Source: a virus (taxonomy: Duplodnaviria > Caudoviricetes). Taken from it: 64,000 nucleotides of DNA. The notes beneath the pieces are model-generated. The model saw only the letters and a program-made list of their open reading frames with translations, did not search any database and was not told the origin of the DNA. The position numbers and the translations under genes are program-made. Each line of letters opens with the position of its first letter. The first letter of the stretch is position 1. The stretch covers positions 101,007-165,006 of the IMG/VR virus record IMGVR_UViG_3300021431_000079, one strand, 5' to 3'. Positions 10,331-44,000 of this stretch are shown one piece after another.

Positions 10331-11431
10331 ATGAGTAGAAGTTTAGCACATATTGAAGAGATTAAAGCGCTTCATCCAATTGAAGGAAAAGATAGAATTG
10401 TTCTTGCTGAAGTGCTTGGGTGGACAGTTATTGTTCAGAAATCAGAATTTAACATTGGAGACAAAGTAGTATATGTAGAGATTGATTCTGTCCTTCCTGA
10501 GAAACCAGAGTTTGAATTTTTAAGAGATAAGAACTTTAGAATCAAAACTATGAAAATGGCAGGATACTATAGTCAGGGAATTTGTTTTCCGCTTTCCATT
10601 CTCCCAGAAACAAGAGAGTATAATGTTGGTGATGATGTTACAGACATTATTGGCATTAAGCAATATGAGCCGACAATGGATGATGATAAAGAGGTAATTA
10701 AAAACACGCCTCAGAATACAAAACAAAACACAAAGCATTATCCTGAGTTCTTAATGAAGTGGAAGTGGTTCAGAAAGCTTGTACTGCCAAAGAAACAGGC
10801 AAAAGGATTCCCTGATTTTATTAACAAAAGTGATGAAACGAGGATTGAATCTGCACCTTTTTATCTTCAGAATAAAACTCCAATGATCTGTACAGAAAAA
10901 ATTGAGGGACAATCCGGCTCGTTTGCGCTAAAGAAGATTCCTAAGAAACATTTTTGGCAAAAGACACAATATGATTTCATTGTTTGTTCTCGTAATCTCA
11001 GACTTTGGAATGAAAACAATTCATCATACTGGACAGTTGCGAAGAAGTATCATATTAAAGATGTTCTTATGAAGTTAATTGGCAATAATGATTTTGTCGC
11101 TATTCAGGGCGAATGCGTAGGAACTGGTATTCATAAGAACATTTATCATATTAATGGTTATGATCTTTATGTGTACAATCTCATTTATCCATCTGGAAGA
11201 ATGGGAAGTCTTGAAGCTAAGAAAATTATTGAAAAGAATGGAATGAAGTTCGTTCCTATTGTAAATGATAGCTATGTACTTCCTGATACCATTGAAGAGT
11301 TAAGAGAGTACGCACATGGACAAAGCGTATTATATCCAACACTTAGAGAGGGTCTTGTGATTAGATCAAGAGATGGACGTAGAAGTTTTAAGTGCGTTGA
11401 TCCTGAATATCTTATCAAGCACAATGCATAA
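10331..11431 (+). CDS. ATP-dependent RNA ligase (DRB0094/Rnl5-like)
   Basis: N-terminal OB-like domain (VYVEIDSVLP, SQGI); nucleotidyltransferase motifs TEKIEG, QGE, REGLV, FK. Confidence 0.85.
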   Translation: MSRSLAHIEEIKALHPIEGKDRIVLAEVLGWTVIVQKSEFNIGDKVVYVEIDSVLPEKPEFEFLRDKNFRIKTMKMAGYYSQGICFPLSILPETREYNVGDDVTDIIGIKQYEPTMDDDKEVIKNTPQNTKQNTKHYPEFLMKWKWFRKLVLPKKQAKGFPDFINKSDETRIESAPFYLQNKTPMICTEKIEGQSGSFALKKIPKKHFWQKTQYDFIVCSRNLRLWNENNSSYWTVAKKYHIKDVLMKLIGNNDFVAIQGECVGTGIHKNIYHINGYDLYVYNLIYPSGRMGSLEAKKIIEKNGMKFVPIVNDSYVLPDTIEELREYAHGQSVLYPTLREGLVIRSRDGRRSFKCVDPEYLIKHNA

Positions 11432-11586
11432 ATTAAAAAACATCAGTTAAAAGGACGCTTTAAAAAAAAAGGACACTTGGGACGCATCCCCTTGCCAAAG
11501 CCGTAGTGCGTGGCTGTAAATAACGGACGGTGGGATGCACGACAACCTGTTGGAAGAAGGCTTGGGTTGTCACTTAAAGGAGATAT

Positions 11587-11760
11587 ATGGTGGAAGCACT
11601 CAATAAGCGAGAAATTCATGAACAGCTTGATGAAATCAAAAGTATTGTTGAGATGAATGTTCATCCTGCTGTTTCGCCTGACAACTGGTATATCTATTCA
11701 AATCTGCATGATGAACTTGAGCAACTTGAACTGTTATTAAAACGAAATAACGTAATTTAA
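11587..11760 (+). CDS. Cassette micro-ORF (57 aa)
   Basis: AAGGAG RBS; MVEALNKREIHEQL... Confidence 0.65.
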   Translation: MVEALNKREIHEQLDEIKSIVEMNVHPAVSPDNWYIYSNLHDELEQLELLLKRNNVI

Positions 11761-11886
11761 ATAAAATTGCGGTTTCGCCACAGTATCGTTGATGGGCGTG
11801 TAATAAATAGGTGTGTAGCCTACTTGCAAAGACCTTCCGCATTCTATATTAAAGGGCGATTTGAAGCACAGGAGATAATTTTTAAT

Positions 11887-11973
11887 ATGCTGTTAGCGAT
11901 ATGCTTTTTATGCTTACCCTTTGCATGGACATATATGCTCTATATCTTATGCAAAGAAATAGACGAATTGTAA
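11887..11973 (+). CDS. Cassette micro-ORF, hydrophobic peptide (28 aa)
   Basis: AGGAG RBS; MLLAICFLCLPFAW... Confidence 0.45.
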   Translation: MLLAICFLCLPFAWTYMLYILCKEIDEL

Positions 11974-11993
11974 TTTAAAGGGGTAATAAGACT

Positions 11994-12155
11994 ATGGCGA
12001 TCATGAAATGGGAAGAACTTTCTAATGAACAGAAACAGGAATGCTACATGTCCTACTGCGAGGATGTGCGCTATGAGTGGGGAGATAGAGCTAAACCGAT
12101 GTCATACGATGAATGGTGCAAAGAATCAGAGGAACTTGGTGAAGCACTTTATTAA
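11994..12155 (+). CDS. Cassette micro-ORF, acidic (53 aa)
   Basis: MAIMKWEELSNEQKQECY...; the stop lies inside the next site. Confidence 0.6.
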   Translation: MAIMKWEELSNEQKQECYMSYCEDVRYEWGDRAKPMSYDEWCKESEELGEALY

Positions 12156-12167
12156 ATGAGTTTGGAT

Positions 12168-12251
12168 ATGTGGATAGTCCCATTACTTATTGCTGTTGGA
12201 TTTGGTGGCATTATTGTGCTTTTTGTGCTTATTGATAAAGATGAATCATAA
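12168..12251 (+). CDS. Cassette micro-ORF, TM peptide (27 aa)
   Basis: MWIVPLLIAVGFGGIIVLFVL... Confidence 0.5.
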   Translation: MWIVPLLIAVGFGGIIVLFVLIDKDES

Positions 12252-12271
12252 CTTAAAAAGGGAGTTTTGGC

Positions 12272-12373
12272 ATGATGGATGATTGGAAATTATGGAGGTT
12301 ATGGTTTATATTTACCATCGTCTGCTGTGTGCTATTAGTTATCCTTGACATTTTAGGTGTGCCAATTGATTAA
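12272..12373 (+). CDS. Cassette micro-ORF, TM peptide (33 aa)
   Basis: GGGAG RBS; MMDDWKLWRLWFIFTIVCC... Confidence 0.5.
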   Translation: MMDDWKLWRLWFIFTIVCCVLLVILDILGVPID

Positions 12374-12386
12374 AACGAGCAAAGCA

Positions 12387-12551
12387 ATGAGAAGGCGAAT
12401 TGACGCTACAATTTATTTTGGCGAAAACAGAAAAGAAACAACCGTTTTTGTGGATGAAAATGCCACATATGAAGAGATCTATGATGCAGTCATGAGCGAT
12501 GCTTTAGACATGATCGAAATTGAGTGGCACGAAGTTGAAACTGCTTTTTAA
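12387..12551 (+). CDS. Cassette micro-ORF (54 aa)
   Basis: MRRRIDATIYF...; the stop lies inside site 12548. Confidence 0.6.
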   Translation: MRRRIDATIYFGENRKETTVFVDENATYEEIYDAVMSDALDMIEIEWHEVETAF

Positions 12552-12577
12552 CGGATGCTTAAAAGGAGGGCTGAGGT

Positions 12578-12769
12578 GTGATCATTATTTTTGCAATAAT
12601 CGTTATAATTCATGCACTTTGGTATACATTTTTGTATGTCGAGTGGCGTAACGACTGTAAAGAGATATGTAAAGAAAATCTTGCCGTACCTTTATCAGAG
12701 CGGTTGTATAGCTCGTTCTTTTATATTACAATTCCATGTTTTGTTGGAGTGTTAATGGGTTTGTTATGA
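12578..12769 (+). CDS. Cassette micro-ORF, two-TM protein
   Basis: AGGAGG/GAGGTG RBS; two hydrophobic stretches. Confidence 0.6.
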   Translation: MIIIFAIIVIIHALWYTFLYVEWRNDCKEICKENLAVPLSERLYSSFFYITIPCFVGVLMGLL

Positions 12770-12942
12770 AAACTTTTCAATTTAAAAGTAACTGTCTTAA
12801 TTGCAAATATCATTTAGATAATTGTATTTGTGGAAAAGATGGCACAGATACAAGTGAATGGTTTATGGATGAGGTAACATGTTGTGAGCTATCCGAATCA
12901 GCCAAACAGTACGAATACACAATAAATACAACGCTAAATTAA
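12766..12942 (+). CDS. Cassette micro-ORF, Cys-rich
   Basis: MKTFQFKSNCLNCKY...; ATGA overlap. Confidence 0.55.
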   Translation: MKTFQFKSNCLNCKYHLDNCICGKDGTDTSEWFMDEVTCCELSESAKQYEYTINTTLN

Positions 12943-12957
12943 AGGGAGGCAATATCA

Positions 12958-13071
12958 ATGGAGAAGTATTCATACTATCTGGGCGGGAAACTGTATTTTG
13001 TCTTGCTGTCACCAGAAGAAAAAGTGCTTTTTGAGAATCGGTATGGTGTGTGCCTGTCAATAGTACGTTAA
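12958..13071 (+). CDS. Cassette micro-ORF (37 aa)
   Basis: GGAGG RBS; MEKYSYYLGGKLYF... Confidence 0.55.
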   Translation: MEKYSYYLGGKLYFVLLSPEEKVLFENRYGVCLSIVR

Positions 13072-13090
13072 AAGAGGAAGAGGCAGAGTA

Positions 13091-13312
13091 ATGTTCACGA
13101 AAAAGAAAAATGCAAGATTTGGCAGATATCCATGTTGTGATATGGTCAATAACGCCATAAGGCTCATCGCAAACGGAAAAACAGAACATGCCATTGAAGA
13201 ATTATATATGGCTATACAGAAAGCTGATGGTTATATCCATGAAGACCTTATTGATATAGTCAACGAGGCTCATAAGCAAACATGGAGTGAACGGCACGGT
13301 TTTGATTATTGA
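13091..13312 (+). CDS. Cassette small protein (73 aa)
   Basis: GAGG RBS; ORF track. Confidence 0.6.
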   Translation: MFTKKKNARFGRYPCCDMVNNAIRLIANGKTEHAIEELYMAIQKADGYIHEDLIDIVNEAHKQTWSERHGFDY

Positions 13313-13374
13313 GGTACGATTAATGAGCGTGATTATTAAGTGGTCATTTACAAATTAAAAGATCGGAGTATCGT

Positions 13375-13530
13375 ATGGCATATAATATTGGTGACACAAG
13401 GGTGTTTTATAGCCAGAAATATCGAGACGAAAAGGCAGACAAACTTGAGAAAATGGGATATCGCATTAAACGATATGATGGCCTGACCAATTATTTTTTC
13501 AAGGTGCTGGACACCCCAAGTCGTTTCTAA
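13375..13530 (+). CDS. Cassette micro-ORF (51 aa)
   Basis: GGAG RBS; the stop lies inside site CTAAAGGACGC. Confidence 0.55.
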   Translation: MAYNIGDTRVFYSQKYRDEKADKLEKMGYRIKRYDGLTNYFFKVLDTPSRF

Positions 13531-13538
13531 AGGACGCT

Positions 13539-13814
13539 ATGGATGAGAAGAAACTAAAAGGTTTGTGTAGAAATTGCATGTATCGTAAAAGATGTGAAGA
13601 TGCTAAACGGTATCTCAACATGATTGCATGTTCCAGTTATAGGATACATGGCAATAGGAAGAAACTCACTAAAAGGAGTGTAATCATGAATACTGTCTAT
13701 GATTTTGAAACTGCTATCAGCGAACTGATGGACAAGGCATTGAACAAACTTTCTCCGAATGAATTTGAAGTCCTTAAGGACAGAGTTTCTGTGATTCTTA
13801 CGGAGTATGACTAA
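13539..13814 (+). CDS. Two cassette ORFs read through in frame (second start at 13686)
   Basis: Internal site/RBS CTAAAAGGAGTGTAATC at 13669. Confidence 0.5.
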   Translation: MDEKKLKGLCRNCMYRKRCEDAKRYLNMIACSSYRIHGNRKKLTKRSVIMNTVYDFETAISELMDKALNKLSPNEFEVLKDRVSVILTEYD

Positions 13815-13847
13815 CATTAGAGACGCATATGGGAGCTAACACGAGAA

Positions 13848-14018
13848 ATGAAGGAAACATTTTTAGAGCTGTGTAAACTTTGGTCATTTGTACACTTCTG
13901 CGAATGGAATGGAACGTACACAAAAGCGATTGACGCATGTAAGAGAATTGATGTTGTCGCAAAAGGACATCCAGTGCTCAATTTTTTAGCGCAACATTTT
14001 TGCTCATTCTTTTGTTAA
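13848..14018 (+). CDS. Cassette micro-ORF (56 aa)
   Basis: MKETFLELCKLWSF...; the stop lies inside site 14015. Confidence 0.5.
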   Translation: MKETFLELCKLWSFVHFCEWNGTYTKAIDACKRIDVVAKGHPVLNFLAQHFCSFFC

Positions 14019-14031
14019 AGGATGTTTATAA

Positions 14032-14121
14032 ATGGGAAAAATTATATGTGTATTAACTGTATTTTTAGTGCTTTATTTGATATTAGCCGTTTTTTATGAT
14101 GACTGGTTTTTCTTTAAGTAA
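14032..14121 (+). CDS. Cassette micro-ORF, TM peptide (29 aa)
   Basis: MGKIICVLTVFLVLYLILAVF... Confidence 0.5.
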   Translation: MGKIICVLTVFLVLYLILAVFYDDWFFFK

Positions 14122-14134
14122 AGAAGTTCGATCA

Positions 14135-14305
14135 ATGAATGTTAGAAAAGACTGTTTTTATTACGAATATAACATAAGTACCAACACTGATTGTTGCACA
14201 TGCAACGAATTAGGAATTTGTCAATGCTCAGATACCTGTGAAGATTATGTGGATAGAGAGGAAATGTCTCAGTCTATTCTTCAGATATTAGAAAGGGTTT
14301 ATTAA
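14135..14305 (+). CDS. Cassette micro-ORF, Cys-rich
   Basis: MNVRKDCFYY...CCTC...CQC...C. Confidence 0.55.
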   Translation: MNVRKDCFYYEYNISTNTDCCTCNELGICQCSDTCEDYVDREEMSQSILQILERVY

Positions 14306-14318
14306 ACGGTGTTTATGA

Positions 14319-14525
14319 ATGATCAAGAAACATAAAATGAGTAATAAGCTTAAATGGTGTTTAGGTTTTAGCAAAGCTGTCGATCTTCGTGGGCATCCAA
14401 GATGGAGAACCCGAAAAAAGAATATTCACAGAGTTCAGAAAATGATGCGAAAAGCCTTCAGGCGATGGGGATGCTTTCCTTTACCGCCTGAGTGGAAACA
14501 AAACTCAACTATAAGGAGGGAATGA
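14319..14525 (+). CDS. Cassette small basic protein
   Basis: 68-aa ORF, HPRWRTRKKN motif. Confidence 0.55.
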   Translation: MIKKHKMSNKLKWCLGFSKAVDLRGHPRWRTRKKNIHRVQKMMRKAFRRWGCFPLPPEWKQNSTIRRE

Positions 14526-14527
14526 AA

Positions 14528-14662
14528 ATGGCTTGCCTTTGGTATTTAGGATTAGAAGCAACAGAAGAGTGCATAAAAACGTGTACTATAACAGAGAAAA
14601 ATAGGGATATTTGTGTGCGCCCAGAAACTTTAGACGCAGATGACGATTTTGAGTTAATTTAA
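14528..14662 (+). CDS. Cassette micro-ORF (44 aa)
   Basis: AGGAGG RBS; MACLWYLGLE... Confidence 0.5.
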   Translation: MACLWYLGLEATEECIKTCTITEKNRDICVRPETLDADDDFELI

Positions 14663-14680
14663 AGGAGTATAGATGAAAAC

Positions 14681-14815
14681 ATGATGCAACTAATAGCACA
14701 TGGCATAGCAAGTGGCAATCTTGTTGCATATATGATACTTTACATAATTCTTTTACCGCCAATAATGCTTATTTGTTTTGCTATTATTGACTGGATAAAG
14801 AACAAAAATAAATAA
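14681..14815 (+). CDS. Cassette micro-ORF, TM peptide (44 aa)
   Basis: MMQLIAHGIASGNLVAYMILYIILL... Confidence 0.5.
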   Translation: MMQLIAHGIASGNLVAYMILYIILLPPIMLICFAIIDWIKNKNK

Positions 14816-14831
14816 CTTAAAGGCAGGTATT

Positions 14832-14984
14832 ATGACAGTAAAGGAGTTGATTGAGAAATTACAGCAAGAAAATCCCGATACGCTTGTTTATACAACGGAC
14901 GATACAAATTATGATGATATTGCTTTAGTGACCGAAATTAGTAGAAATATACTTTTTGGAAAGGAGATCATATTTCTTCATTAG
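14832..14984 (+). CDS. Cassette micro-ORF (MTVKELIEKL type, 50 aa)
   Basis: Common small phage protein start motif. Confidence 0.6.
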   Translation: MTVKELIEKLQQENPDTLVYTTDDTNYDDIALVTEISRNILFGKEIIFLH

Positions 14985-15016
14985 ACGTATATGGAAGGAG
15001 ATTGTTTATTTTTATT

Positions 15017-15274
15017 ATGAATTTATTATTTTACAATAATAATGGCGAATGGCATAAACTGTGTGAAACATCTGAGTTTGAAGTAACCAATATAGAGACA
15101 GAAGAGATTACAGAAGGAAAACAGCAAACTCTAATGTTCGATGGCCACTATTCGTGTGATGGAGTGTTCACCCTTACAAAACAATCAAGAATCAAATTGT
15201 TGCAAAAAGTATTTTGTATGTCCAACAACTGGTTGCGTATGCATGGGTATCCGATGAAAAAGAAAAGGGAGTAA
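15017..15274 (+). CDS. Hypothetical protein
   Basis: ORF ending NNWLRMHGYPM. Confidence 0.55.
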   Translation: MNLLFYNNNGEWHKLCETSEFEVTNIETEEITEGKQQTLMFDGHYSCDGVFTLTKQSRIKLLQKVFCMSNNWLRMHGYPMKKKRE

Positions 15275-16066: not shown

Positions 16067-16243
16067 GTGAAGAGATATAGATGTATAGAGTGTAAACATT
16101 GTAATGAAGATGAAAAGAAATGTTATCCTCAGTCGAAAGATTGTCAGGCTGAATATGACTTAACAGAAGATGATATTTATGAGTATTCAACCGAACGCTG
16201 TGATTTCTTTGAGGCGAAAGTTGAGAAGATGGAGGATGCATGA
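16067..16243 (+). CDS. Cys-rich 58-aa protein, paralog of 26277-26450
   Basis: GAGGTG RBS; MKRYRCIECKHCNEDEKKCYPQSKDC... Confidence 0.7.
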   Translation: MKRYRCIECKHCNEDEKKCYPQSKDCQAEYDLTEDDIYEYSTERCDFFEAKVEKMEDA

Positions 16244-16905: not shown

Positions 16906-17085
16906 ATGGAAGAAACTGACGAAAGAGATCATATTACAAATGATGAGTTAATACTTTTAAGCGCACTAAATCATATGTGCGAATCTGGAAAAATATCACA
17001 CAGCCTATTTACTTCTGTCCTTCGTGATTATAAATCAAAAGTTGACATATCTAAGTTCACATGCTATAATCATAATTACAAATGA
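16906..17085 (+). CDS. Small protein upstream of the integrase (possible directionality factor)
   Basis: GGGAG RBS; 59 aa, L..L...GKIS..LF pattern. Confidence 0.5.
   Translation: MEETDERDHITNDELILLSALNHMCESGKISHSLFTSVLRDYKSKVDISKFTCYNHNYK
17042..17070 (+). promoter_or_regulatory. Consensus SigA promoter for the serine integrase
   Basis: TTGACA-17nt-TATAAT with TG extended -10. Confidence 0.8.
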
Positions 17086-17109: not shown

Positions 17110-18933
17110 ATGAGAGTAGAAAATAATCAACCAAGAAACATAGCTATATATGCACGAGTATCTACAGAACATGAGGCACAACTATATGCTCTTGACAATC
17201 AAATAGACTGGTACGAAATCATACTACAGAGTCACCCCAATTGGAATATCATTCATAAATATATTGACAGGGGAATCACTGGAACATCTGCAACAAAAAG
17301 ACCACAATTCATGCAGATGATAAAAGATGCAGAGAGTAAAGAGTTTGATCTTATCATCACTCGTGAGGTTTCGAGGTTCGCAAGAAACACAGTTGACACA
17401 TTACAGTACACCAGACAATTGAAAAAGATCGGAATAGAAGTCTATTTCGTTGAGGATAACATCTGGACATTTGATGCAGATGGTGAGTTGAGACTAACTA
17501 TTATGGCAACTCTCGCTCAAGATGAGAGTAGAAAAACATCACTGAGAGTTAAAGCAGGACAAAGGGCAAGTATGGAGAAAGGTGTGTTCTTTCAGAACGG
17601 AAGCATACTTGGATACGATAAAATAGGTAACAACATGGTAATAAACCCAGAACAATCTGCTACTGTCAAATTGATATTTGATCGGTATAATTCAGGGATG
17701 GGTGTTCGTAAAATTCAATGGGAGCTTGAATCACTTGGCAGAAAAACAGCCAAAGGTAGCACAAAGTGGACTGCTTCTGTAATATGCAGAATCTTGAAGA
17801 ACAAATTCTATGCAGGATACATTGTGTGGTACAAGCAATTCGTTCCTGATTTTCTTGAACAGAAGAAGATCAATAACCACGGAGAGAAAGAGCAGTTTGA
17901 AGTTCTTGGAAGTCACGAGCCAATAGTATCTCTTGAAGATTGGGAGCTTGCTCAGAGAAGATTGGAGCAATCAAGTCAGATAGTCAACAAGGGTAGAAAG
18001 GTCGGTGCTAAACCTAAGACAGGGTTATGGACAAACAAGCTTAGATGTTCATGTGGTAGATCATTCAACAGAAAGATATGGCACAAGGATAAAAAAGATG
18101 GATCAATCCAATATGGATACCAATGTTACAGCAGTATAAAGTCTGGATCAGTTGCAACAAGAATAAATAAAGGCTTGCCACTTGATGGAATCTGTAAGAG
18201 TCCTGCGATCTCAGAGTGGAAGCTTGAAGCAATGGCACTATATATTTTCAAAGATTTTACCTTCAATAAAGATAGAATCATCCAACTTGGAATGCGTGAA
18301 ATAGAAAAAGCATTAAGGTCTGTTAATAATAATGATAACAAAGAACAAATAAATAGTCTAAAAAATGAGCTTGACAAATACAATAAAAAGATAGATAATC
18401 TAATCGAAATGCGCACAGATGGGGAGATCTCTAAAGAGCAATTCACCGCAAAGAAAAAGGACTTTGAAATCGAGATAAACAGAATAGAGAAAGAGATAGA
18501 ATCAATAAGTGATAAGCAGGATGCCATTAAAGATATCCCACAGTTATTGAGTGAGTTCAAAGCAAATTTAACAAGCATGTTGAACGAGCCTATTGTGGAT
18601 AAAGTGCCTGAGTATATTATTGATGCTATGGTTGAGTATATCTTGGTGGATGAGAATAAGTTCACTTGGAAGCTACGCTATCCATCTGATAAGTATTATT
18701 TATCTATTGATGGTAGTAAAAAACAGCATACAGTGTCAGAAAGTCCATCTTTACGTCAATGCCTCACAGGCTGCAATACACGAAATGCGGAACAAGCAGT
18801 AAACAATATCTCATTTACAAACGATTCTATCCTCATCTTATTTGATAAAAAGATGGTACAGCAATATGGCAATCTCAAACCAACAGATAGAATCCACAGA
18901 TGGTATGATATTGTGATCGAGATTATTTTTTAA
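17110..18933 (+). CDS. Large serine recombinase (integrase)
   Basis: YARVST catalytic motif, SRFARN, recombinase domain, Zn ribbon (CSCG...C...C) and coiled coil. Confidence 0.95.
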   Translation: MRVENNQPRNIAIYARVSTEHEAQLYALDNQIDWYEIILQSHPNWNIIHKYIDRGITGTSATKRPQFMQMIKDAESKEFDLIITREVSRFARNTVDTLQYTRQLKKIGIEVYFVEDNIWTFDADGELRLTIMATLAQDESRKTSLRVKAGQRASMEKGVFFQNGSILGYDKIGNNMVINPEQSATVKLIFDRYNSGMGVRKIQWELESLGRKTAKGSTKWTASVICRILKNKFYAGYIVWYKQFVPDFLEQKKINNHGEKEQFEVLGSHEPIVSLEDWELAQRRLEQSSQIVNKGRKVGAKPKTGLWTNKLRCSCGRSFNRKIWHKDKKDGSIQYGYQCYSSIKSGSVATRINKGLPLDGICKSPAISEWKLEAMALYIFKDFTFNKDRIIQLGMREIEKALRSVNNNDNKEQINSLKNELDKYNKKIDNLIEMRTDGEISKEQFTAKKKDFEIEINRIEKEIESISDKQDAIKDIPQLLSEFKANLTSMLNEPIVDKVPEYIIDAMVEYILVDENKFTWKLRYPSDKYYLSIDGSKKQHTVSESPSLRQCLTGCNTRNAEQAVNNISFTNDSILILFDKKMVQQYGNLKPTDRIHRWYDIVIEIIF

Positions 18934-24650: not shown

Positions 24651-25640
24651 TTATGAGCAATATCTATAATAAGCGTTTTTAACGTTATCCTTTTCGATGT
24701 AAACATATTTCATTGTGGTGTCAATTTTGTCGTGACCCAAAATATAAGCCACATCCTGAATCGACATACCACGCTTAATTAAATTCGTTGCAAGTGTTCT
24801 TCTAAATCTATGCGGATGAACATTCACAACACCAACTTTTTCAGATAACTTTGTCAACATAAATCTAACTCCATGCTGAGTTAGTCTTTCTGATCTCTTA
24901 CCAATTCCAGAGAAGAGAGCTTCGCTATCATCCGTTCTACTTTCAAAATACTGCTTGAGATACATAGCCGTGATATCATCTATGTAAACAGTACGCTCCT
25001 TATTCCCTTTACCAAGTACACGCACTTCAAGATTCTTGAAATCAACATCGCTTTTATTTAATCTTGTCACTTCACCGATTCTACATCCAGTAGAAATAAG
25101 AAAACAGACAAGCGCCTTATCTCTGATATTAATACAACCTTCTTTTAATTTCTCTATTTCAACACTGTCAAAAGGTAGTCTTTCTAACTTAGCATACTTA
25201 ATCCTACTTAGATTAATGCATGGATCAGTAGGGATAAGATTTTCTCTAAATAACCATCCGAAAAACGAGCACATGACACTTCTATATCCATTCAACGTTC
25301 TATCAGATATTCCACGACTTTTTAATCCTGCTAAATAGTTTCTAATGTGATATACACTTATATCTCTGGTTGGAACATTGATCTTTTCATACATCTTCTC
25401 AAGCACATAACGATAATGCCCCAATGTCTTTGAAGAACAACCTTCAATCTGCTTAGAGGAGATAAATGCATCCAATAAGTCTGCGCTATCATCATTTTTA
25501 ATTTCATCAATATTAACAGAACAGACAGAGAGATTATTCGCAACAACTTCCATCACCATAAACAGATCATCATATGACAACTTCGATATAAGATCGTTTT
25601 TAATATTTTTAATTAAAACCTGCTTATCAGCAATTGACAT
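24651..25640 (-). CDS. Tyrosine recombinase (XerC/D-like, with N-terminal SAM-like domain)
   Basis: TGCRIGE (R), GKGNKER (K), HRFRR (HxxR), LGH...TTMKY (H, Y); catalytic set intact. Confidence 0.95.
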   Translation of the reverse strand: MSIADKQVLIKNIKNDLISKLSYDDLFMVMEVVANNLSVCSVNIDEIKNDDSADLLDAFISSKQIEGCSSKTLGHYRYVLEKMYEKINVPTRDISVYHIRNYLAGLKSRGISDRTLNGYRSVMCSFFGWLFRENLIPTDPCINLSRIKYAKLERLPFDSVEIEKLKEGCINIRDKALVCFLISTGCRIGEVTRLNKSDVDFKNLEVRVLGKGNKERTVYIDDITAMYLKQYFESRTDDSEALFSGIGKRSERLTQHGVRFMLTKLSEKVGVVNVHPHRFRRTLATNLIKRGMSIQDVAYILGHDKIDTTMKYVYIEKDNVKNAYYRYCS

Positions 25641-25686
25641 AGCATATACCTCACAATAACACACAAGCAACTATAATGTTATAGCA

Positions 25687-25889: not shown

Positions 25890-25908
25890 TACTTACCAAA
25901 AGCGTCCT
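25890..25908 (-). repeat. 19-bp direct repeat copy 1 / putative recombination site
   Basis: TACTTACCAAAAGCGTCCT, identical to 26819-26837. Confidence 0.9.
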
Positions 25909-26276: not shown

Positions 26277-26450
26277 TTATACACTCATGTTATTTACTTT
26301 CGGTTTATAAAAATCACACCTTTCAGTAGAATAGTCATAGATATCATTATCTGTAAGCGCATATTCACTGAGACAATCCCTCGATTGAGGATAGCACTTC
26401 TTTTCATCTACATTACAATGTTTACATTCTATACACCTATATTTCTGCAT
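26277..26450 (-). CDS. Cassette Cys-rich 57-aa protein, paralog of 16067-16243
   Basis: GAGG RBS; MQKYRCIECKHCNVDEKKCYPQSRDC... Confidence 0.7.
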   Translation of the reverse strand: MQKYRCIECKHCNVDEKKCYPQSRDCLSEYALTDNDIYDYSTERCDFYKPKVNNMSV

Positions 26451-26587: not shown

Positions 26588-26773
26588 ATGGGTATCAATG
26601 GAGGCCGTAACATCCGGGGAGTTGAAGAGGAGGGTGGATATACCAAATTCAACATCACTCTCCCTCCGTCCCTGATCGAGCGTCTGGATAAGTACATGAG
26701 GGAAGAAGAACGCAACCGCTCATGGACAATCCAAAAGGCACTCGATGCTTACCTAAGAGAGAAGGGCTATTAA
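26588..26773 (+). CDS. Ribbon-helix-helix (CopG-like) regulator
   Basis: KFNITLPPSLIERLDKY...RSWTIQKAL; GAGGAGG RBS; candidate promoter TTGACA..TACACT upstream (about 26538-26567). Confidence 0.85.
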   Translation: MGINGGRNIRGVEEEGGYTKFNITLPPSLIERLDKYMREEERNRSWTIQKALDAYLREKGY

Positions 26774-26818: not shown

Positions 26819-26846
26819 TACTTACCAAAAGCGTCCTTTAAGTTAG
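26819..26846 (-). repeat. 19-bp direct repeat copy 2 / putative recombination site abutting the fibre stop codon
   Basis: Minus strand TAA-CTTAAAGGACGCTTTTGGTAAGTA. Confidence 0.9.
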
Positions 26847-39000: not shown

Positions 39001-39813
39001 TTTAACAGCATCAGTATTTGTAGTTAAATTGATTTGCGTTGCAAGTCCGTCTGTATCTACAAAAATAGTAGTATCCTCTCCATAAGGATACTCAATATTC
39101 GAGCTTCCACAGTTCGGGCAAACACCACTAAAATCATCTCGTTTCCCACAGTTTTTACAATAGCTTCTTAAGTCGTAAGCTGAGATAGCTCTTTCAATAC
39201 TTCCATCAGGAAGAGTGCCAGAGTCATAAACAAAGATACATTGCACCTCTTGTGCAATAGTATTAAAAGTATCATAAACATTCTGACCATCCAATGAGAA
39301 CGTTCTTTGAATGTTCCTTAAGGATTCATCAACGTGTTTAATTGTAAAACCCATAGTAAAAGAAAGCACCCTATGTAAAAGGGACGCTTCTGGTTTTTGT
39401 GGATTAAAGAATACAGTAGGTTCTGTATATTCTTTTCGTAATATATCAGACTCAGTATTGATCTCAAGATTGTGAACGTTCATGTTAGATAGCTCAAACT
39501 CTGAGTTCGGTGTGAGGCTGATATTCTTTATCAATTCATTGCTTTCATCTACATCATATGTAAGTGCAAACCACTTATCATATTCTGGTATCCAAACCTT
39601 CCTGAAATTCTTGATCTCTTTCCAGTTGGCACTTGTAGCATCATCAACATAGTGCGTAGCGAAATTGATTTCAGTAGGAGAGTTCATATTGTCAGCAATA
39701 TGAAAACCAGTAATGTTATCAATCACACCAATCTTTTTACCACTACGAGTTGCTAAGACCATAGTCGGTTTTGTTGGTGTGTTTTTTCCATTGAATTTTA
39801 TCTTTATTGCCAT
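30067..39813 (-). CDS. Tal/central tail spike with repeats, carbohydrate-binding-like modules and a C-terminal intramolecular chaperone
   Basis: Follows Dit; prophage-tail-like N-terminus; three NKYLW repeats; KVEFGNKATAWTPAPED; SDRRLKKNI (peptidase S74-like). Confidence 0.85.
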   Translation of the reverse strand: MAIKIKFNGKNTPTKPTMVLATRSGKKIGVIDNITGFHIADNMNSPTEINFATHYVDDATSANWKEIKNFRKVWIPEYDKWFALTYDVDESNELIKNISLTPNSEFELSNMNVHNLEINTESDILRKEYTEPTVFFNPQKPEASLLHRVLSFTMGFTIKHVDESLRNIQRTFSLDGQNVYDTFNTIAQEVQCIFVYDSGTLPDGSIERAISAYDLRSYCKNCGKRDDFSGVCPNCGSSNIEYPYGEDTTIFVDTDGLATQINLTTNTDAVKNCFRLLSGDGLMDAAIISSNPNGSQYIWYFTDEMKEDMSPELKNGLSAYDADYEYYENTYDVPIPTAKLTLYNHLVDKYLPYKDDLVKIDDIIGYAQLMNAVYDVMDFQIYLESGLLPTLDMDTTAQEQANRITPINLPSVAVANLRSASSTTVDNAVVNATKIILDTRYKAKIVSSVYDSVNHIWTGSFEVTAVSDKEDTATTDTINIPINDTYEIYARQKIEKAVAQLDKNSYSITELFDLGIEDFKDRLKKYSRAGLASILSACEGAIGVMVEMGISNPTSAALVEGGVNAYTYIYLPYVQKLRAIEAEVKTRDEEIAAIEDLYDSLMERKHIINDTLDIVNYLGQDLATELYSYKMEDDYQNNNYISDGLDNAELFKKAAEFVQIANYEIHKAATENHSISTTLNNLLTIDEFKPLVNYFSVGNWIRIKVDGEIYRVRLLSYSIDFDSIDTIQVDFSDVVGHGDTSLSDIFESAKSMAKSYESIKYQAATSVQTKEQVNDWIKKGLDLTTMRILNATNQTMVLDDTGMSMKQWDDIEQDYSDFQSKWINTTLAFTTDNWETTETALGRFDYYNPKTGQIEEGYGIIAKQLIGNMILGEDMSIFSENGDVTIDKNGITITSNGDDDVNSNTFTIQKKTSDGQGGFNIEKQVYIDENGNLVFNGSSITMTTGKTFDETIADIQSQIDGTIETWNGSVVPTLTNEPAVNWRTDETKNRHLGDMYYVQSSDEYNGFAYRFSLINGQYQWYLIEDSSAAKAIADAAEALSKVNDLSGRAITSDVLYYLATNLDSGVTTSTPGWTTDASQAVISETNKYLWMYHLYTYGYGDSATQTSTTPIIVGTYGTSGTSGVGISSIVEKYAISNSSSSAPSDSEFTTTIPVMTPTDKYLWNYEIVNYSNGSIAPTGKRVIGVYGESGTDGRGIVSITNYYLATSQSSGVTKDTSGWTETIQNITPTNKYLWNYEEITYTTGNPSSTNPCIIGAYGNQGQAAVRRYLESDYYAVVRGNDGTNSPNRLVFHAYQKVGDNAPTDYVGRFTIETYNAESDSDRIYTFTQDDSTVTFNIQESLTYIKCSLYEAGGTTVLLDSQTIPVVADGTDSRVAILTNDSHMFAGGYTSAEVDSVTFDVIGYQGSTRVNTTVGTITGTIEGALTATVNYNGTTRTSITVSTTENLTQQTGFLTIPVTVGGVTINKIFSWSVIYMENSITEDIPLYISSDMTTPPSKPVVAVTETGNVANKWTQGRPLWTDVYCHLYMCHQLKYSDGHYEWTTVINDTLQEHFYQYDSSVQTLITNSSIQNIVNGKYTNHLDYLDDSLGDTGLSWLVNYGSFLYPNDGRCYFCGFNDSGNRADVDGWVWWNKQKVNIAKGVWIYPANGMYTDVIPYNTPIYHVYRTSDSGHYDAWWDENTKSYKAVKYTANDGSHGNPFLWAFVESTDIVIATYMYGEDGVIFGGELFTPPKKGSSITGVTQSQAQVTILEQSIEAKVQQAFDDFSIGGRNIVLDTVYPASIIGTSESVVSNDSYYLSDTWRSYSDNVIDGWVTFSYDWSTSDNVTPSGSIYVGFNVPPRLPENVSGVADISTGSGHVSESFKITSADKSANFTKIRVEGRQLPDGLIVTIRNLKVEFGNKATAWTPAPEDSYRRGGEQLLLDTNTPGTIRISAVADKKIVATGSLRNTVSIREDSNYGFEMPQTNIRYLVRCLCSSSPDNNYYGIAFYDDDCGTILTAGETYTVSCYGIIGSGNTIAFGYKTDPNATDYTIIYESDVASVGWQRYSFTFVAPENTMKNGGIAFAFLVKYNAVASNEMCGFKIERGSYASEWCLADKELSSVDNMLTYPYLAHGNNEGTSDYVIQKSGITYTIHTDGSVTANGTSDIGGSYIDINRVELQPGAYSLSGCYPGGSNASYYMRLSTVSTSPIVYWYDYGTGVSLVLTEKTEMLIRICVGSGATVNNITFYPMLESGIIIHAWKSPVDNSATRIKKAEASIKINADSIESKVSEEDFNGNEIISRVNQTATTYQVDAERINLNGAVTYSSFNNEVKNDLKATKANYGLCTTSANTAAKTTTINDFLLYTGATVTVYFNNENTVANPTLNVSGTGAKPIYANGAAITSDYYWKNKDTVTFIYDGTNWVLTETSAQKAAIAAQLAADNAQQTADDANAAVTSLSATIPAINLVPSVYNREYVSGSPWTVNGLTFTVNPDGSVKVTGTATRETYFTITGYTLPELTNEQSVLFIDPNKKYRLSGCPSGGTNTSYSLCARCTADGTTPTATSGTIYTDSGSGVTVSAGFKYVHLYIVIFSGYATPSDGITFFPMFETGETTHTYVSNRGVMKTIKQTTPIYYRSTTNTIPSKPTSTTTIYSTLSDSDTNKWCKSMPDPKRNCYYFMCDMIVYTDGITSFTDVTALSTLSYSSLWCNSNDKTKIDGAQIYTGSITADKIKVNNLESISANIGGWAINGTRIEKDLTGSGGYRVGMQNTATATNGSAVFYAGTNTAAGGAIASETASNFYVRQDGYMYCKNAKIAGNITASSGNIAGWVISTNDIHKFTNYTVGTPTDSAYLKKIWGTENAGDGGWAISVQKCSYDGSTFSNYTPTFVVRNDGHLVAKSAEISGTVNATTGRFGRWVINDTEIYNQSTVTSGTSSTQYNVRLYCPSNPKADSVALQCRQRTYNGSTYGTYSNTFYINYDGYIYAANGGRLGAWNIGTGTNGALFNGMTSFTDPNHNGVYLGSNGIAFAKSSVYIKSTGEYKFGSIQSVSSSSTNDDTWVTNALFVSYGLELLADNDGNSPYIDFHREMKQPGQSGGYDYSARIINSGTNTVAFQGRHTSSGATVENCTVTAHTFSATTMIASNYNNPSDRRLKKNIVKLNANDSEDFIKGLIPSKFEYISDENSDHHHGFIYDEVDPIKKDNKWVVSRQIGTTVDDKEVYYGAVNLTEIIPDIVAVLQKELKRSDERYENAMSKIAELEDKIALMSK

Positions 39814-39817
39814 TTTA

Positions 39818-40615
39818 TCACACTCCAATCTTTGCTAATGGACGATAAGATATCGTAACATTACATGGCATAGATAAAGTATACGTGTTCCTTTTCTCAT
39901 CAAATGTATTTATAACTTTTGGATAGATATAATTAAAATCATTTGCTATATCATGTGAAGTATCACCAGAGGTGATGATAGGATGATAAATAGCGATAGA
40001 TTCATTTGCGCTACAGTTTTTAATTACAGTTGATTCATCAGGTGTCATATTATTGGAGATAGTTAAGTCTCCGCTATTTAAACAAGTGATGATAAACTTC
40101 GGATACAGTGTACCAACTTCATCTGAGGTGTTAAGAATAGAAAGTGAAGTTGTGTTGTTGTATGTGTAGCTTCTCTCCATATCCCATCCAAAAGGACTAT
40201 TCGTAGTTAATGTTAATTCCAATCCAATGATATTTGTTCCTGCTCTAACCTGATTGATAGTGAAAGAGCCATAATATGTTATGTTCTCATAACCGTTTGA
40301 ATACAATTGAAATGGCAAGTATTCTTTTCTCTGTAACCATCTTGCCAAATCCCTTACGTCTTCTACAGATAAATAATCACCTTGTGACCACATATCACAA
40401 ACACTTTTGCAAATACAAAACGTTGTCGTTATAACAGTTTCATATGATATTCCTGATATTGTCCGTTTAATCCCATGTTGTAGCGGCACTTCAGCGAATG
40501 TAATCTCAGCACCATTAGAGATCTGATCATTTATCCCACTAAACTGGCAAATAATATATCCTTTTTCACTTAAAAGGATTCCATCATACATAAAATCCAT
40601 TGCGCTTACACTCAT
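39818..40615 (-). CDS. Distal tail protein (Dit)
   Basis: Lies between tape measure and Tal; NSPFGW motif. Confidence 0.75.
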   Translation of the reverse strand: MSVSAMDFMYDGILLSEKGYIICQFSGINDQISNGAEITFAEVPLQHGIKRTISGISYETVITTTFCICKSVCDMWSQGDYLSVEDVRDLARWLQRKEYLPFQLYSNGYENITYYGSFTINQVRAGTNIIGLELTLTTNSPFGWDMERSYTYNNTTSLSILNTSDEVGTLYPKFIITCLNSGDLTISNNMTPDESTVIKNCSANESIAIYHPIITSGDTSHDIANDFNYIYPKVINTFDEKRNTYTLSMPCNVTISYRPLAKIGV

Positions 40616-40634
40616 CGCGCCACCTCCCGATATT

Positions 40635-40937
40635 TTAGAGTCTTAGCTTCAACTGAAGAATCTTATCGTCAATATCCAGTTGCGACTCTTTCATTTCTTT
40701 CAATCCATTTATAGTTTCTTTTAGTTCATTCATTTTTTCCTGATATTCATTTTTTAAATTTGAAAGATCAGATACGAGCTTATTGTATTCATCAATAGTT
40801 TGATTCACAGTATCACGAGCCTGAGTAATCTCTTTTTCCTCAGATAATTCCTTTAGCTGTTGTCTCAGCTTATCATTTTCTTCGACAAGCTCTGAATTAC
40901 GATCTCTCAATATTTGAATTGTTTTGTTATAATCCAT
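40635..40937 (-). CDS. Coiled-coil hypothetical protein
   Basis: Heptad-rich ORF with GGAG RBS. Confidence 0.55.
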   Translation of the reverse strand: MDYNKTIQILRDRNSELVEENDKLRQQLKELSEEKEITQARDTVNQTIDEYNKLVSDLSNLKNEYQEKMNELKETINGLKEMKESQLDIDDKILQLKLRL

Positions 40938-40956
40938 GATATATTCTCCAAAATAA

Positions 40957-40988
40957 AGTAGAGTCTGCACTTTCGCACAGACTCTACT
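40957..40988 (-). terminator. Hairpin downstream of the tape measure gene
   Basis: AGTAGAGTCTG...CAGACTCTACT. Confidence 0.65.
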
Positions 40989-41002
40989 TATATTATATAT
41001 TG

Positions 41003-44000
41003 TTAAAACTTCACATTGTACTTATCAAATCTGCTTGTTCCTTTCAGTCTGTTATTCAACATTGCGTCAAACATTCTTTCCCACTTGTCACTACTCTGAA
41101 TCTGTCTCATCAGATCCTCAAAGTCGGAAACATTGGAAATAGGAATAGTAATATTAATATCATTATTAATATCACCTGCATTATTTGTATTAACAATGTT
41201 TGTATCCTTAAGAACAGTAGACATGAACTTCTCAGGATCTTTGAGCATTCTCCACATATTATCTGTAGCCTGAGCATCCACGACCATGCTTTGTCTTGCC
41301 AATGGAGTAAGGATACTACCATCAGGACGAACAATAGTTTCCGTACCACGTTCGTTAACAAGAGCAAATCTATCTTTGTCTACAGATTGTGTACCTGTCC
41401 AATATCCCTTAAGCTGATCAAGAGATACCCAACCAAGGTCAGACCAAGGATCTCCGGGTTTAGTACCTGCCTTTCTAATACGATAAGGTTTACTAACTCC
41501 TGCGTAATTCGTAGCAGTCTGATAAATCTCTACGGCATTAGGCTGTCCAGAGAACTGAGAACCAACAGGCTTTACACCCCATGCGGAATAGTTATATTGT
41601 CCAGTGAATGTGACAATGTCACCTACCTCTGGTTTACCATTTCCTTGTGAGGTATTCTTGGCAGAATTGACCGCGGCTTTAGCACCAACACCTACACTGC
41701 CAGACCCGTTTCCTGCGCCAGTATTTGACTTAACAGGTTTGAGGTTTGAAACATCAGCTTTGGTGTATGTACCATTCCCCTTTGCGGCGGCTGAATTTGC
41801 ATTCGCTTTCACATTGGAAGAAGATGGCGTACCAGTTTTTGTCTCAAACAATTTCTCCATAAGCTCTCTGATTTTGTCAAGATCATCTTTAACACTTCCC
41901 ATGTTATTGATAACATCACCGACTTTTCCAGTTCCCATATCAATGGCGGCTAAGATATTAGAAGCTTTATCCATCTCCTGAATCTTATTTTTCACGCCAT
42001 TAATCTGATCCTGAATGGCAGTTGAGTTCTCATCAAACGAACGTTTGATCGCATTAGTATCTCCATTGCCAAGGTATGCATCAAGAGCAGTTCCAATGTT
42101 ATTGATAGATGTACCGACAGATCCACTCTCACCAATCAATGCTTTCTGTAATGTAGAGGCCATTGTATTGATAAGATTCTGGATAGACTGTTCGCCAGAA
42201 AGAGCAGAGTTGATAACAGACAAGTCTTCACTGAATGCATTATGGATATTCTCAGAGAGATTTCCATCACCAGTTCCAAGAAGCTTTGCAATGTTATCAA
42301 TCTTCTCAGCATTCAACGTGATACCATATACCGAATCTCCAATTAAGGATGCGGCAGTTTGTCCATCGTATCCAAGAGCAGAAGCTACAGCAGTCAAGTA
42401 TCCTTCAATCAATCCTGCGTGTGTAGAAATGTTTTCAAGCGTACTTGTCTGTCCGTTGGTTAATGTCTCAGTAATGATAGCACGATCATTGGAAAGTTCG
42501 GTCATCAACTCAGAGGTATATGTAGCAAGAGCAGGAAGACTATTAAAGTCAGAGCTTGCAAATACTTCATTAACCCCAGAAGTCACCTGATAACCAACAT
42601 TTCCCGCAACTGTATTGATGGTATCACTAATCTGTCCAGACGCAAGGTTAATCTCGCCGATCTGTTCAGCAATTAAAACATCCAGATTGTCAAGTCTTTC
42701 ATTGAGTACAGTATTGAAATCATCATACAGACCATTTAACAATTCCTTCTGATCAGAAATAGCTCTCTCGTAAAGAGTTTCTTGTAAACTTTCTTGAGCA
42801 GTTTCCAGAGAATTGTTAAGTTCCTGAAGTCTCTTACGATTTTCTTCTGAATCATCACCAGAAAGAGCGGCAAGCTGTTTCTGAATATTAGTAATGTTCT
42901 TAGTCTGGTTAGCTACATTCTTCTGATAGTCATAAAGAGATTTCTGCTGATCAAGGGCATTGCTATATGTATCAATGAGTTCCTTGAGATAGGAGAGTGT
43001 GCTTTGGATTCCCTGTTCAACGAGACTCTTTAATGCTTGCTTCTCTTGTTCTGCGGCAAGAATCATTTCCTGCTGAAGCTCAAGAAGCTGTTTACGTCTC
43101 TCATAAAGAGTTTTGTTATTCGGATCTTTTGCAAGGTCTTCAGATATCTTAAGCATCTCATCTCTGTACTCGTCTGCCTGTTGCATATAGACATTGTAGT
43201 TTAATCCATGCAAACCTTTAGTGCTCATACCACGATTAGTAATATAGCCTTGGTCAGAATACATCTTAAAGTTTGACATAAGATTGATTAAGAAATCAGC
43301 CTCAGAGGTAATATCTCCAATCATGGTTTGAGTAAGATCAAATTTATCCCACTGAAGCTGACGAATAGCATTATTATATTCTATAATACTATTAGTCATT
43401 TCATCAATAGCAATAGTAACTTGATCAACCTGATTCTTGTAATTGTACCACGCCTCAGAACCTTCCTCTACAGCACCAGTATCAACAGCCTCTTGGAACA
43501 TAGTAAGCATTTCTTCATGCTTCTTATTAAGAATGAACATCTGGGTTTCTGCGTTGTCAATAAGCTTTTCATAATACTTCTGACTTACAAGATAGCCCTT
43601 CTGTTCTGTTCTATTGATAGCACTGTTGATTAAATTGCTTGCGTTCTCAAAAGATGTGAGTACGGAATCTGCACGATTCTGAATAAGATCAAATGCTTCT
43701 TGGTAAAGATTGGAAATATCCATGCAGAGATCGTATAAGGAATCCTGCATTTTTATAGCCTTATTGTACCATTCAGTATAGCTCTTAATAGAATTACTAA
43801 GCTCCTCATTCTGAATGTTCTCAATATCAATTGCACCCTTACGAACAAGTTCTTTATAGTAATCACTGAGCGGAATGTTCTCTGCCTCAGTCATATATCG
43901 CCAGTAAGCGGCTCTTGTCACAGCGATCTCATCATTAACATTATTGATGTTATCCATGATAGCATCCGCTCTGGTCTTATACTTCTGGAACGAGTTACCA

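Follow-up and report, generated by a model that had tools for sequence, protein, structure and literature searches.

A Block of Micro-Genes and Small Non-Coding Modules Exchanged at Its Junctions Between Related Metagenomic Phages

Results

The DNA analyzed here, hereafter the window, is a stretch of 64,000 nucleotides (bases 101007-165006) from the 165,006-base IMG/VR virus record IMGVR_UViG_3300021431_000079; positions are those of the window unless stated otherwise, and genome-wide counts cover all 165 kb. Within window positions 11447-15274, the + strand carries 20 tiled open reading frames (ORFs) of 28-91 amino acids together with two structured non-coding modules, here called RNA1 and RNA2. 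These modules are clearly exchanged between related phages, and the joints lie at the junctions between modules, often with 6-7 nt of shared sequence and without one fixed position. We lean, modestly, toward reading the stretch as a hyperplastic accessory block of independent modules whose junction box is associated with starts and whose exchange goes through recombination at short homology. The original prediction, made from the DNA letters alone, had described an array of about 20 micro-genes of 27-73 residues punctuated by a recurring site; the number of genes holds, and the ORFs delimited here have 28-91 residues.

Comparisons were made with viral and metagenome contigs containing relatives or homologues (L-numbers) and with metagenome runs (X4-X7). 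L007 is a near-identical relative, and L008, which is 94% identical, was the reference for substitution counts. Gene calls are those of our own heuristic. For runs X5-X7, neither the stretches of the block that lack contig cover nor the small word shares were used as evidence.

The Junction Motif

The motif TTAAA{1,3}GG occurs 41 times in the 165 kb genome, and ten of these copies fall within the 3.5 kb of the block, all on the + strand and all between modules. TTAAA(A)GG lies within 30 nt upstream of the start in 8/20 ORFs here, compared with 4/230 elsewhere (Fisher p = 1.5e-7). At the stop codon itself, TTAAA is present in 8/20 ORFs of the block versus 19/223 elsewhere, and in none of the 28 other + strand junctions of window 1-19 kb. 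By our reading, 12-13 of 19 ORFs stop in or just before a TTAAA, as had been claimed. The motif is absent from structural gene junctions.

TAA is the stop codon of 16/20 ORFs, and spacing is short: the junctions have a median length of 17 nt and span -4 to 33 nt in 17 of 20 cases. A Shine-Dalgarno core (GGAG or GAGG) occurs within 30 nt upstream of 13/20 ORFs, and Shine-Dalgarno use in the block is no different from that in the rest of the genome. The TAA stops, the short spacing, and the ordinary Shine-Dalgarno use are what would be expected if the motif were a trivial by-product of TAA stops lying beside AAGGAG ribosome sites in packed genes, an explanation to which we nevertheless give almost no weight. 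A null model combining real gene ends with a forced TAA and real strong Shine-Dalgarno sites at the observed spacings predicted a mean of only 0.45-0.94 motifs versus the eight observed, and none of 20,000 simulations reached eight; the by-product explanation is thus rejected by the very comparison that the original prediction had named as its test. By our reading the TAA of the motif is the functional stop codon in only three of the ten copies, and a stop plus a ribosome site therefore does not explain the motif. Furthermore, AAAGG(AG) is preceded by a conserved TT without a counterpart in the anti-Shine-Dalgarno complement AGAAAGGAGG; rRNA pairing does not account for the T before TAA, and related boxes in other phage lineages stand apart from the Shine-Dalgarno sequence.

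Other parts of the original description fared less well. The GGACGC-type spacers, taken as the class GG[AG][CT]G[ACT], were found at 3/20 junctions compared with 21/230 elsewhere, which is not significant, and those at 14015 and 13811 have been altered by mutation or removed by deletion in L008. The similarity reported to the fibre locus comes down to 10-12-mers (BLAST E values of 0.5-7.5) that have dozens of equally good chance matches beside them.

Junction words are not peculiar to this block. In another 20-gene block GAAAGGA precedes 14/20 genes versus 14/230 elsewhere (p = 4e-11), and further blocks of the genome favor ATAAGGA or GAGGTGA. Since other 20-gene runs have their own enriched words, block-specific junction dialects are a general trait of this phage, and the motif of the block is a dialect rather than a unique site. 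The GAAAGGA block consists of small + strand genes at genome bases ~39,600-46,200 (window -61348 to -54801), where the word often appears as TAAGCGAAAGGAGA. The box was also considered, by eye, as a sigma-70 promoter; this was dropped because, with such spacing, transcription would begin downstream of the ribosome site.

Module Shuffling and Breakpoints

Homologues of single modules recur with other neighbors, as anticipated by the original prediction; this applies to ORF6, ORF10, ORF17, ORF19, and both RNA modules, and homology ends within a few bases of the junctions. Retention of the same neighbors from phage to phage, which the original prediction had named as a second outcome that would speak against it, was thus not seen. 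ORF6 (54 amino acids, 12387-12551) is a mobile module whose homologues, 74-83% identical, occur in no fewer than five other contexts. Its nucleotide homology is confined to 12373/12381-12551, ending exactly at the ORF6 stop codon. The homologues follow an RHH gene in L015 and L018, whereas in L016 and L017 a 290-nt spacer separates them from an HNH gene or from apparent tRNA sequences; in run X7, the homologue lies behind foreign DNA that ends in TAACTTAAAAGG.

ORF10 (73 amino acids, 13091-13312) is highly mobile, with homologues of 56-99% identity that form 17 protein clusters and occupy 64 loci, almost never with another gene of this array. Their contexts include tail/lysis junctions, lysogeny modules, small siphophage-like contigs, and large phages where they lie beside NrdD/dUTPase homologues. 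L036 carries the C-terminal half of ORF12, ORF10, RNA1, and RNA2 in a different order; that half of ORF12 alone adjoins an ORF10 homologue in both L035 and L036, and the 3' end of ORF12 is replaced in run X4. The neighbor of the ORF17 homologue is RNA1 in L019 and an ORF10 homologue in L051. The segment 14835-15012, which comprises most of ORF19, is absent from L007, L008, L010, and run X4 and is not among the matches of L038; the joint of this indel is a 7-nt TATTATG repeat at two start codons. Presence or absence of ORF19 among near-identical relatives bears out the description of the region as hyperplastic and modular.

One X6 contig joins position 11575 to 13529 through six shared bases (AAAGGA). 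The left side of this joint is the junction motif TTAAAGGAG before ORF1 (11574-11582, + strand), and its right side is TAAAGGACGCT (13528-13538, + strand), a strict box that holds the ORF11 stop codon and abuts the ORF12 start. Another X6 contig leaves the block at 11854, and the 99.3% homology of L012 begins at 11851 with unrelated DNA upstream; both breaks lie at the motif TTAAAGGGCGA after RNA2 (11849-11859, + strand), which is thus a recurrent breakpoint. In the L036/L037 comparison, both ends of the homology lie inside the box, although 10-25 nt of other spacer was available. Overall, four of about eight joints (11575->13529, 11851, 11854, and the L036/L037 ends) fall in the motif or box, although the short spacers make this a weak test, and other joints coincide with start or stop codons. 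In one joint of run X6, the two sides have no bases in common.

A Wider Box Family in Other Phages

In several other lineages of metagenomic phages, the junctions between modules are marked by the box TTAAAG[GC]A[CG][AG]C, which is frequently a palindrome. Only this strict form was used because a looser regular expression hit shuffled sequence equally often (38 versus 41). In 227 kb of non-redundant ORF10 loci, the strict box occurs ten times on the array strand and never on the other, compared with 0.97 expected on both strands; an ATG often follows 0-5 nt downstream. Matches at junctions occur in L018, L028, L041, and others, and the palindrome TTAAAG-N4-CTTTAA was recognized in about eight loci on inspection by eye. 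In the window genome, junctions between modules carry the strict box on the coding strand only at 11450, 11468, 13529, and after the fibre stop; the other ten matches lie inside genes or in scattered intergenic places. The first of these belongs to the near-palindromic TTAAAAGGACGCTTTAA (11447-11463, + strand; arms TTAAAAG and CTTTAA), which the original prediction took as opening the array of cassettes. It is a member of a real family, but the first 140 nt that it introduces are a structured element and not an ORF cassette: the block opens with the near-palindrome, a half-copy box, and the 95-nt RNA1, with no ORF first. The second copy, AAAGGACACTT (11468-11478, + strand), abuts RNA1, and a related box precedes RNA1 in L024-L026.

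The sequence TAAAGGAC[GA]CTTTA follows two micro-genes in L018; in L028, it follows the ORF10 homologue and recurs on the far side of an inverted RHH gene. L026 has GGACACTT(TA) directly before RNA1, whereas L024 and L025 have GGCACTTTA on both sides of it. L035-L037 contain a related array with ACTGAWTWAAAGCAGAC at nearly every junction, upstream of a separate ribosome site. We infer from these forms that the TTAAAGG(AG) of the present array may be a collapsed form of the box that has fused with the ribosome site. Box repeats stand on both sides of inserted modules and measure 12 bp in L028, 11-13 bp in L024 and L025, and 19 bp at the fibre locus of the window. TTAAAGG shows no local clustering in the more distant relatives L019-L026 (0.34 per kb), and the L036-type 17-mer has no copy on any other IMG/VR contig.

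Two features of the related arrays may be recorded here. At L037 351-420, one intact and one degenerate box copy enclose only ~24 nt, an arrangement that looks like the scar of a lost module. In L035, an RVT_1 reverse transcriptase gene and, after it, an LRR_5/DUF6273 gene (163-2755) lie ~1 kb ahead of the related array; the pair is possibly a diversity-generating retroelement.

Genes of the Block

Nineteen ORFs tile 11587-14984, and the twentieth extends to 15274. The left flank is an RNA ligase gene (10331-11431, + strand; phrog_968, E = 3.4e-64; Pfam RNA_ligase on the identical L007 gene). Relative to L008, the ORFs contain 27, 17, and 53 substitutions at the three codon positions (46 synonymous and 51 non-synonymous changes); the micro-genes are thus real and behave as genes under purifying selection. 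Their tiling of one strand and the Shine-Dalgarno cores upstream of 13/20 ORFs point the same way. No similarity was detected among the 20 ORFs, which are not paralogues, and PHROG and Pfam scans of all micro-ORFs returned no family except for a weak match of ORF19 to phrog_7217 (E = 7.7e-5), supporting the earlier view that they are unrelated. Paralogy as the origin of the shared junctions was rejected because the ORFs are unrelated to each other. By eye, about six of the peptides are hydrophobic and about five are Cys-rich.

All genes are on the + strand. ORF1 (57 amino acids, 11587-11760) has AAAGGAG 4 nt upstream of its start. It is followed by the hydrophobic ORF2 (28 amino acids, 11887-11973), by ORF3 (53 amino acids, 11994-12155), which is also called as a gene on L007, L010, and L011 and has a homologue in L059, and by two further hydrophobic peptides, ORF4 (31 amino acids, 12156-12251), whose start abuts the ORF3 stop (TAAATG, spacing 0), and ORF5 (33 amino acids, 12272-12373). 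Beyond ORF6, the hydrophobic ORF7 (63 amino acids, 12578-12769) has AAAGGAGG 8 nt before its GTG start and shares an ATGA overlap with the Cys-rich ORF8 (58 amino acids, 12766-12942). ORF9 (37 amino acids, 12958-13071) has a homologue in L091. ORF11 (51 amino acids, 13375-13530), located after ORF10, differs from L008 by six synonymous and five non-synonymous changes, and ORF12 (91 amino acids, 13539-13814), which has a possible internal start at 13686, has homologues of 90-99% identity. Then come ORF13 (56 amino acids, Cys-rich, 13848-14018), ORF14 (29 amino acids, hydrophobic, 14032-14121), ORF15 (56 amino acids, Cys-rich, 14135-14305), the basic ORF16 (68 amino acids, 14319-14525), and the Cys-rich ORF17 (44 amino acids, 14528-14662), whose homologue beside RNA1 in L019 is 61% identical. 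The last members are ORF18 (44 amino acids, hydrophobic, 14681-14815), ORF19 (50 amino acids, 14832-14984), and ORF20 (85 amino acids, 15017-15274), the first gene past the motif-rich stretch.

No sigma-70-like promoter scoring at least 11/12 was found on the + strand within 11447-15274 (promoter-like matches overall numbered 50, compared with 42 +/- 6 in shuffles), and no + strand terminator-like site lies inside the block; the cassettes are promoterless in this sense, as first described. Because the block contains no sigma-70-type promoter, transcription of the micro-genes probably enters from upstream.

Of all internal repeats in the genome, the strongest is formed by two Cys-rich micro-genes, at 16067-16243 (+ strand) and 26277-26450 (- strand), which are 80% identical in DNA and 73% in protein, with homology covering only the ribosome site and the coding part. 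The former lies in the + strand small-gene region, and the latter in the 930-bp segment of the fibre locus between 19-bp direct repeats.

Structured Non-Coding Modules

RNA1 (11479-11573, + strand, 95 nt) lies directly after the RNA ligase gene and is also present in at least seven other viral contigs. It consists of two helices around a conserved core: a 7-bp covarying outer stem, a core of 40 nt that does not vary, and a second hairpin whose loop, TGTTGGGAGAAGGCT, is conserved. In an alignment of eight sequences, 98% of cells are paired and 10/28 pairs show compensatory changes, and none of 500 shuffles was as good. In L020-L022, RNA1 lies among apparent tRNA sequences (judged by eye, without a tRNA scan); no tRNA was found in the block. 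Searches of Rfam, both at the gathering threshold and at E <= 10, returned nothing relevant for the block, and RNA1 was unmatched.

RNA2 (11770-11847, + strand, 78 nt) recurs in L034, L036, and runs X5-X7. It is 86% identical in L034 (7347-7420), an unrelated 24-kb viral contig where its terminal stem, GCGG/CCGC here, is ACGG/CCGT and thus compensated. In L036, RNA2 is at 1555-1642, and L037 has a variant that shares its 3' end. Single-sequence folding of the two non-coding gaps (z = -0.2 and +1.1) was uninformative before homologues were found. An idea that the 3' hairpin of RNA1 is an antisense partner of the box was dropped because the stem varies while the box is constant, and L036 has a GCAGAC box without a GCAGAC stem. 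A further conserved non-coding stretch of ~290 nt lies just before the ORF6 homologue in L016 (535-826) and L017 (190-475), preceded by an HNH endonuclease gene in L016 or two apparent tRNA sequences in L017; it could be intron-like or another structured element.

Genomic Setting, Recombinases, and the Fibre Locus

Window 1-19 kb contains + strand genes of nucleotide metabolism, including an NrdD-type reductase, a dUTPase-family gene (a Pfam mark on near-identical L007), and the RNA ligase. This + strand run ends in a large serine recombinase gene (17110-18933; phrog_95, E = 8e-118; Resolvase and Recombinase domains on L007), 2.1 kb downstream of the array. Just upstream of it, at 17042-17070, is a sigma-70 promoter (TTGACA, 17 nt, TG-TATAAT), the sole 12/12 match in 10.5 kb. 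Beyond 19 kb, the - strand holds lysis and tail-fibre-like genes, an Xer-like tyrosine recombinase gene (24651-25670), and two giant ORFs of 3253 and 4936 amino acids that we take to be structural. The phage stems from the gut metagenome of a ruminant; near-identical DNA is present in gut metagenome runs, and weaker matches occur in bovine and sheep gut runs. Strong ribosome sites of the AAAGGAGG type and a G+C content of 35% are suggestive of a Firmicutes host. When the phage collection was searched for nucleotide matches to the block, near or distant, none appeared, and the distant RNA-ligase loci L002-L006 contain no homologue of any micro-ORF.

The tyrosine recombinase lies 9.7 kb from the array at the fibre locus; it scores 219.5 bits against NF040815 (cut-off 220), but only 55.8 bits against the integron integrase model TIGR02249 (cut-off 265) and 36.4 bits against NF011946 (cut-off 435). 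Its homologues occur near ORF10 or ORF17 homologues in L019 and L030-L032, and one accompanies an ORF10 homologue in only 3/64 loci. Next to this gene, 19-bp direct repeats (25890-25908 and 26819-26837) bound a 930-bp segment, and the box TTAAAGGACGC (26819-26841, - strand), after the fibre gene stop, is fused to one of them. The 19-bp repeat is absent from the array, and neither it nor the joined empty fibre site has a copy on any other IMG/VR contig. The fibre locus and L028, from unrelated phages, share a layout in which a small opposite-strand RHH gene, at 26588-26773 in the window, lies between direct repeats that carry a GGAC[GA]CTTT box; the repeats are 19 bp in the window and 12 bp in L028 (4071-4082 and 4438-4449, between a micro-gene and a holin region). 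Similarity between the two RHH proteins is weak (27% identity, E = 2e-4), and the RHH gene with its box repeats may be a small insertable module.

Discussion

Under the account toward which we lean, a short junction box with (AC)TTAAAG at its core would stand before most modules; in this block it would be largely merged with the Shine-Dalgarno sequence, as in TTAAAGGAG, and often with the previous stop codon. The box would be a start-associated signal of this class of modules, with a presumed role in expression. A box common to unrelated modules and phages provides short patches of identity, and recombination at these patches could add, delete, or swap whole modules, with selection keeping those products in which the genes are intact. 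The executor might be either host enzymes or the Sak4-like annealase whose gene is present in the phage genome; RecT, ERF, and RecA were looked for in the genome and not found. Sak4-like proteins anneal short, diverged DNA and have been linked to phage mosaicism (PMC5928155, PMC5499656).

Several observations weigh against this account. The box and the Shine-Dalgarno sequence stand apart in L036 and L037, and in at least six cases the box precedes RNA1 or RNA2; a box before non-coding modules makes a pure translation signal insufficient. Module homologues in L015, L016, L031, and L033 have no motif at their borders, and the motif is therefore not needed for a module to move. With junctions this short, any breakpoint that spares the genes must fall on or next to the motif, and because of this forced proximity, breakpoints at the motif say little about whether it directs recombination. 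Intergenic divergence between the window and L008 is 9.8% versus 4.3% in coding DNA, so that most spacer positions are without strong constraint. Finally, independent joints are few in number, and part of the evidence comes from relatives that are metagenome contigs, among which L012 is possibly chimeric; a shared motif of 10 nt is, however, probably too short to mislead an assembler.

Some of these points also fit a rival explanation, which we consider less likely: the box could be purely an expression signal (a translation box, a phage-specific promoter, or an RNA-processing site), and random illegitimate recombination followed by selection would place the joints. The strict strand specificity of the box and its position just before starts, the block-specific dialects elsewhere in the genome, the box-free module homologues in other phages, and the X6 joint without shared bases all fit this explanation, and joints at gene borders are of course the classical picture of phage mosaicism. 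Placement by chance and selection accounts less readily for two independent breaks at 11851-11854 inside a 126-nt spacer, for the two L036/L037 breaks inside the box when 10-25 nt of other spacer was available, for the 6-7 nt microhomologies at joints, and for the box repeats that flank inserted modules. A search for the T7-type RNA polymerase family gave no match, but the control search was equally empty and the result has no bearing on the matter. More ambitiously, the palindromic TTAAAG-N4-CTTTAA and the collapsed TTAAAGG might together be a dedicated module-boundary signal across gut and rumen phages, recognized by a factor that the phages encode, whether a recombinase, a DNA binder of RHH type, or an enzyme of RNA processing or transcription. 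Such a signal would allow micro-genes and structured small RNAs to be plugged in, expressed, and exchanged as standard parts, and the array of the window, the fibre-locus insert, and the RHH inserts of other phages would be products of one system. We consider this doubtful; it is kept in view by the box before non-coding modules, the palindromy in about eight loci, and the flanking direct repeats.

The original prediction had proposed that cassettes accrete through a recombinase acting in trans. In a fuller form of this idea, a site-specific enzyme (the tyrosine recombinase at 24651-25670 or the serine recombinase at 17110-18933) would capture promoterless cassettes at the box in the manner of an integron, and this we judge very unlikely. 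The idea draws on the near-palindromic box of about eight loci (by eye), on the box fused to the 19-bp repeat that bounds the 930-bp segment beside the tyrosine recombinase, on the 12-bp box repeat around the RHH gene in L028, on tyrosine recombinase homologues near ORF10/ORF17 homologues in L019 and L030-L032, and on the promoterless cassettes in a single orientation. However, the crossovers vary, lying at a start-codon TATTATG, at AAAGGA, at a stop codon, and once without shared bases; most junctions are too short to leave room for attC-like sites; and the tyrosine recombinase is Xer-like and not IntI-like (55.8 bits versus a cut-off of 265), with homologues at only 3/64 ORF10 loci. The array has only three strict boxes, the spacers proposed initially are not conserved in L008, and the resemblance to the fibre-locus repeat is at chance level. 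Both the empty-site joint and the 19-bp repeat occur on no other IMG/VR contig, and other gene blocks of the same genome carry equally strong dialects of their own.

How large phages gain and lose their many tiny genes is poorly understood outside the T4-type phages, and the block documents one such case in gut phages known from metagenomes, whose hosts are apparently Firmicutes. Individual micro-genes, ORF10 above all, recur in dozens of unrelated phage contexts, and the box is common to several lineages. If the box proves to be a recognized signal, it would represent a plug-in format for phage accessory genes and small RNAs and, if so, also a handle for finding such modules in viromes. Caution is warranted because junction motifs of this type are block-specific dialects and are by themselves no sign of integron-like machinery.

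Comparison with Known Systems

Like an integron, the block comprises unrelated small cassettes that are promoterless and in the same orientation, with a recurring border element and with other neighbors elsewhere. The promoterless, one-orientation arrangement is the only one of four integron features found here. There is no IntI-type integrase, the best model being the Xer-type NF040815; attC-sized sites, which are imperfect palindromes of tens of bases with inverse-core and core boxes, are lacking, as is any consistent inverted repeat; and there is no attI or Pc beside the recombinase, as the array begins after the RNA ligase gene with no promoter at its head. The crossover points are also not fixed.

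As a start signal, the box appears to have its closest analogue in the SAS/ESAS of Cluster K mycobacteriophages (Pope et al. 2011, PMC3203893). Both are short conserved motifs a few bases upstream of the starts of unrelated genes (8/20 here), in a single orientation (10/10 on the + strand here), and confined to the non-structural part of the genome; both combine a Shine-Dalgarno core with conserved positions unable to pair with rRNA and sometimes hold the upstream stop codon. The sequences are unrelated (GGGATAGGAGCCC in SAS versus (AC)TTAAAG[GC]... here), which makes the box an analogue rather than a member, and the presumed hosts belong to another group. The box described here frequently forms a short palindrome, occurs before non-coding modules as well, and marks breakpoints of module exchange between phages.

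For the exchange of modules, the closest analogue would seem to be the PeSL (promoter-early stem-loop) cassettes known from the hyperplastic regions of T4-type phages (Arbiol et al. 2010, PMC2839356; Comeau et al. 2014, PMC4122927). PeSLs are larger and contain a strong sigma-70-like promoter and a terminator stem-loop, neither of which was found in this block, whereas the element here is 7-16 nt long and overlaps the ribosome site. In both cases, a short element is repeated between small non-essential ORFan genes of a hyperplastic region, with recombination between copies as the proposed driver. PeSLs bound the indels and replacements that distinguish close relatives; the motif or box of the present block may do so at the four of about eight joints noted above.

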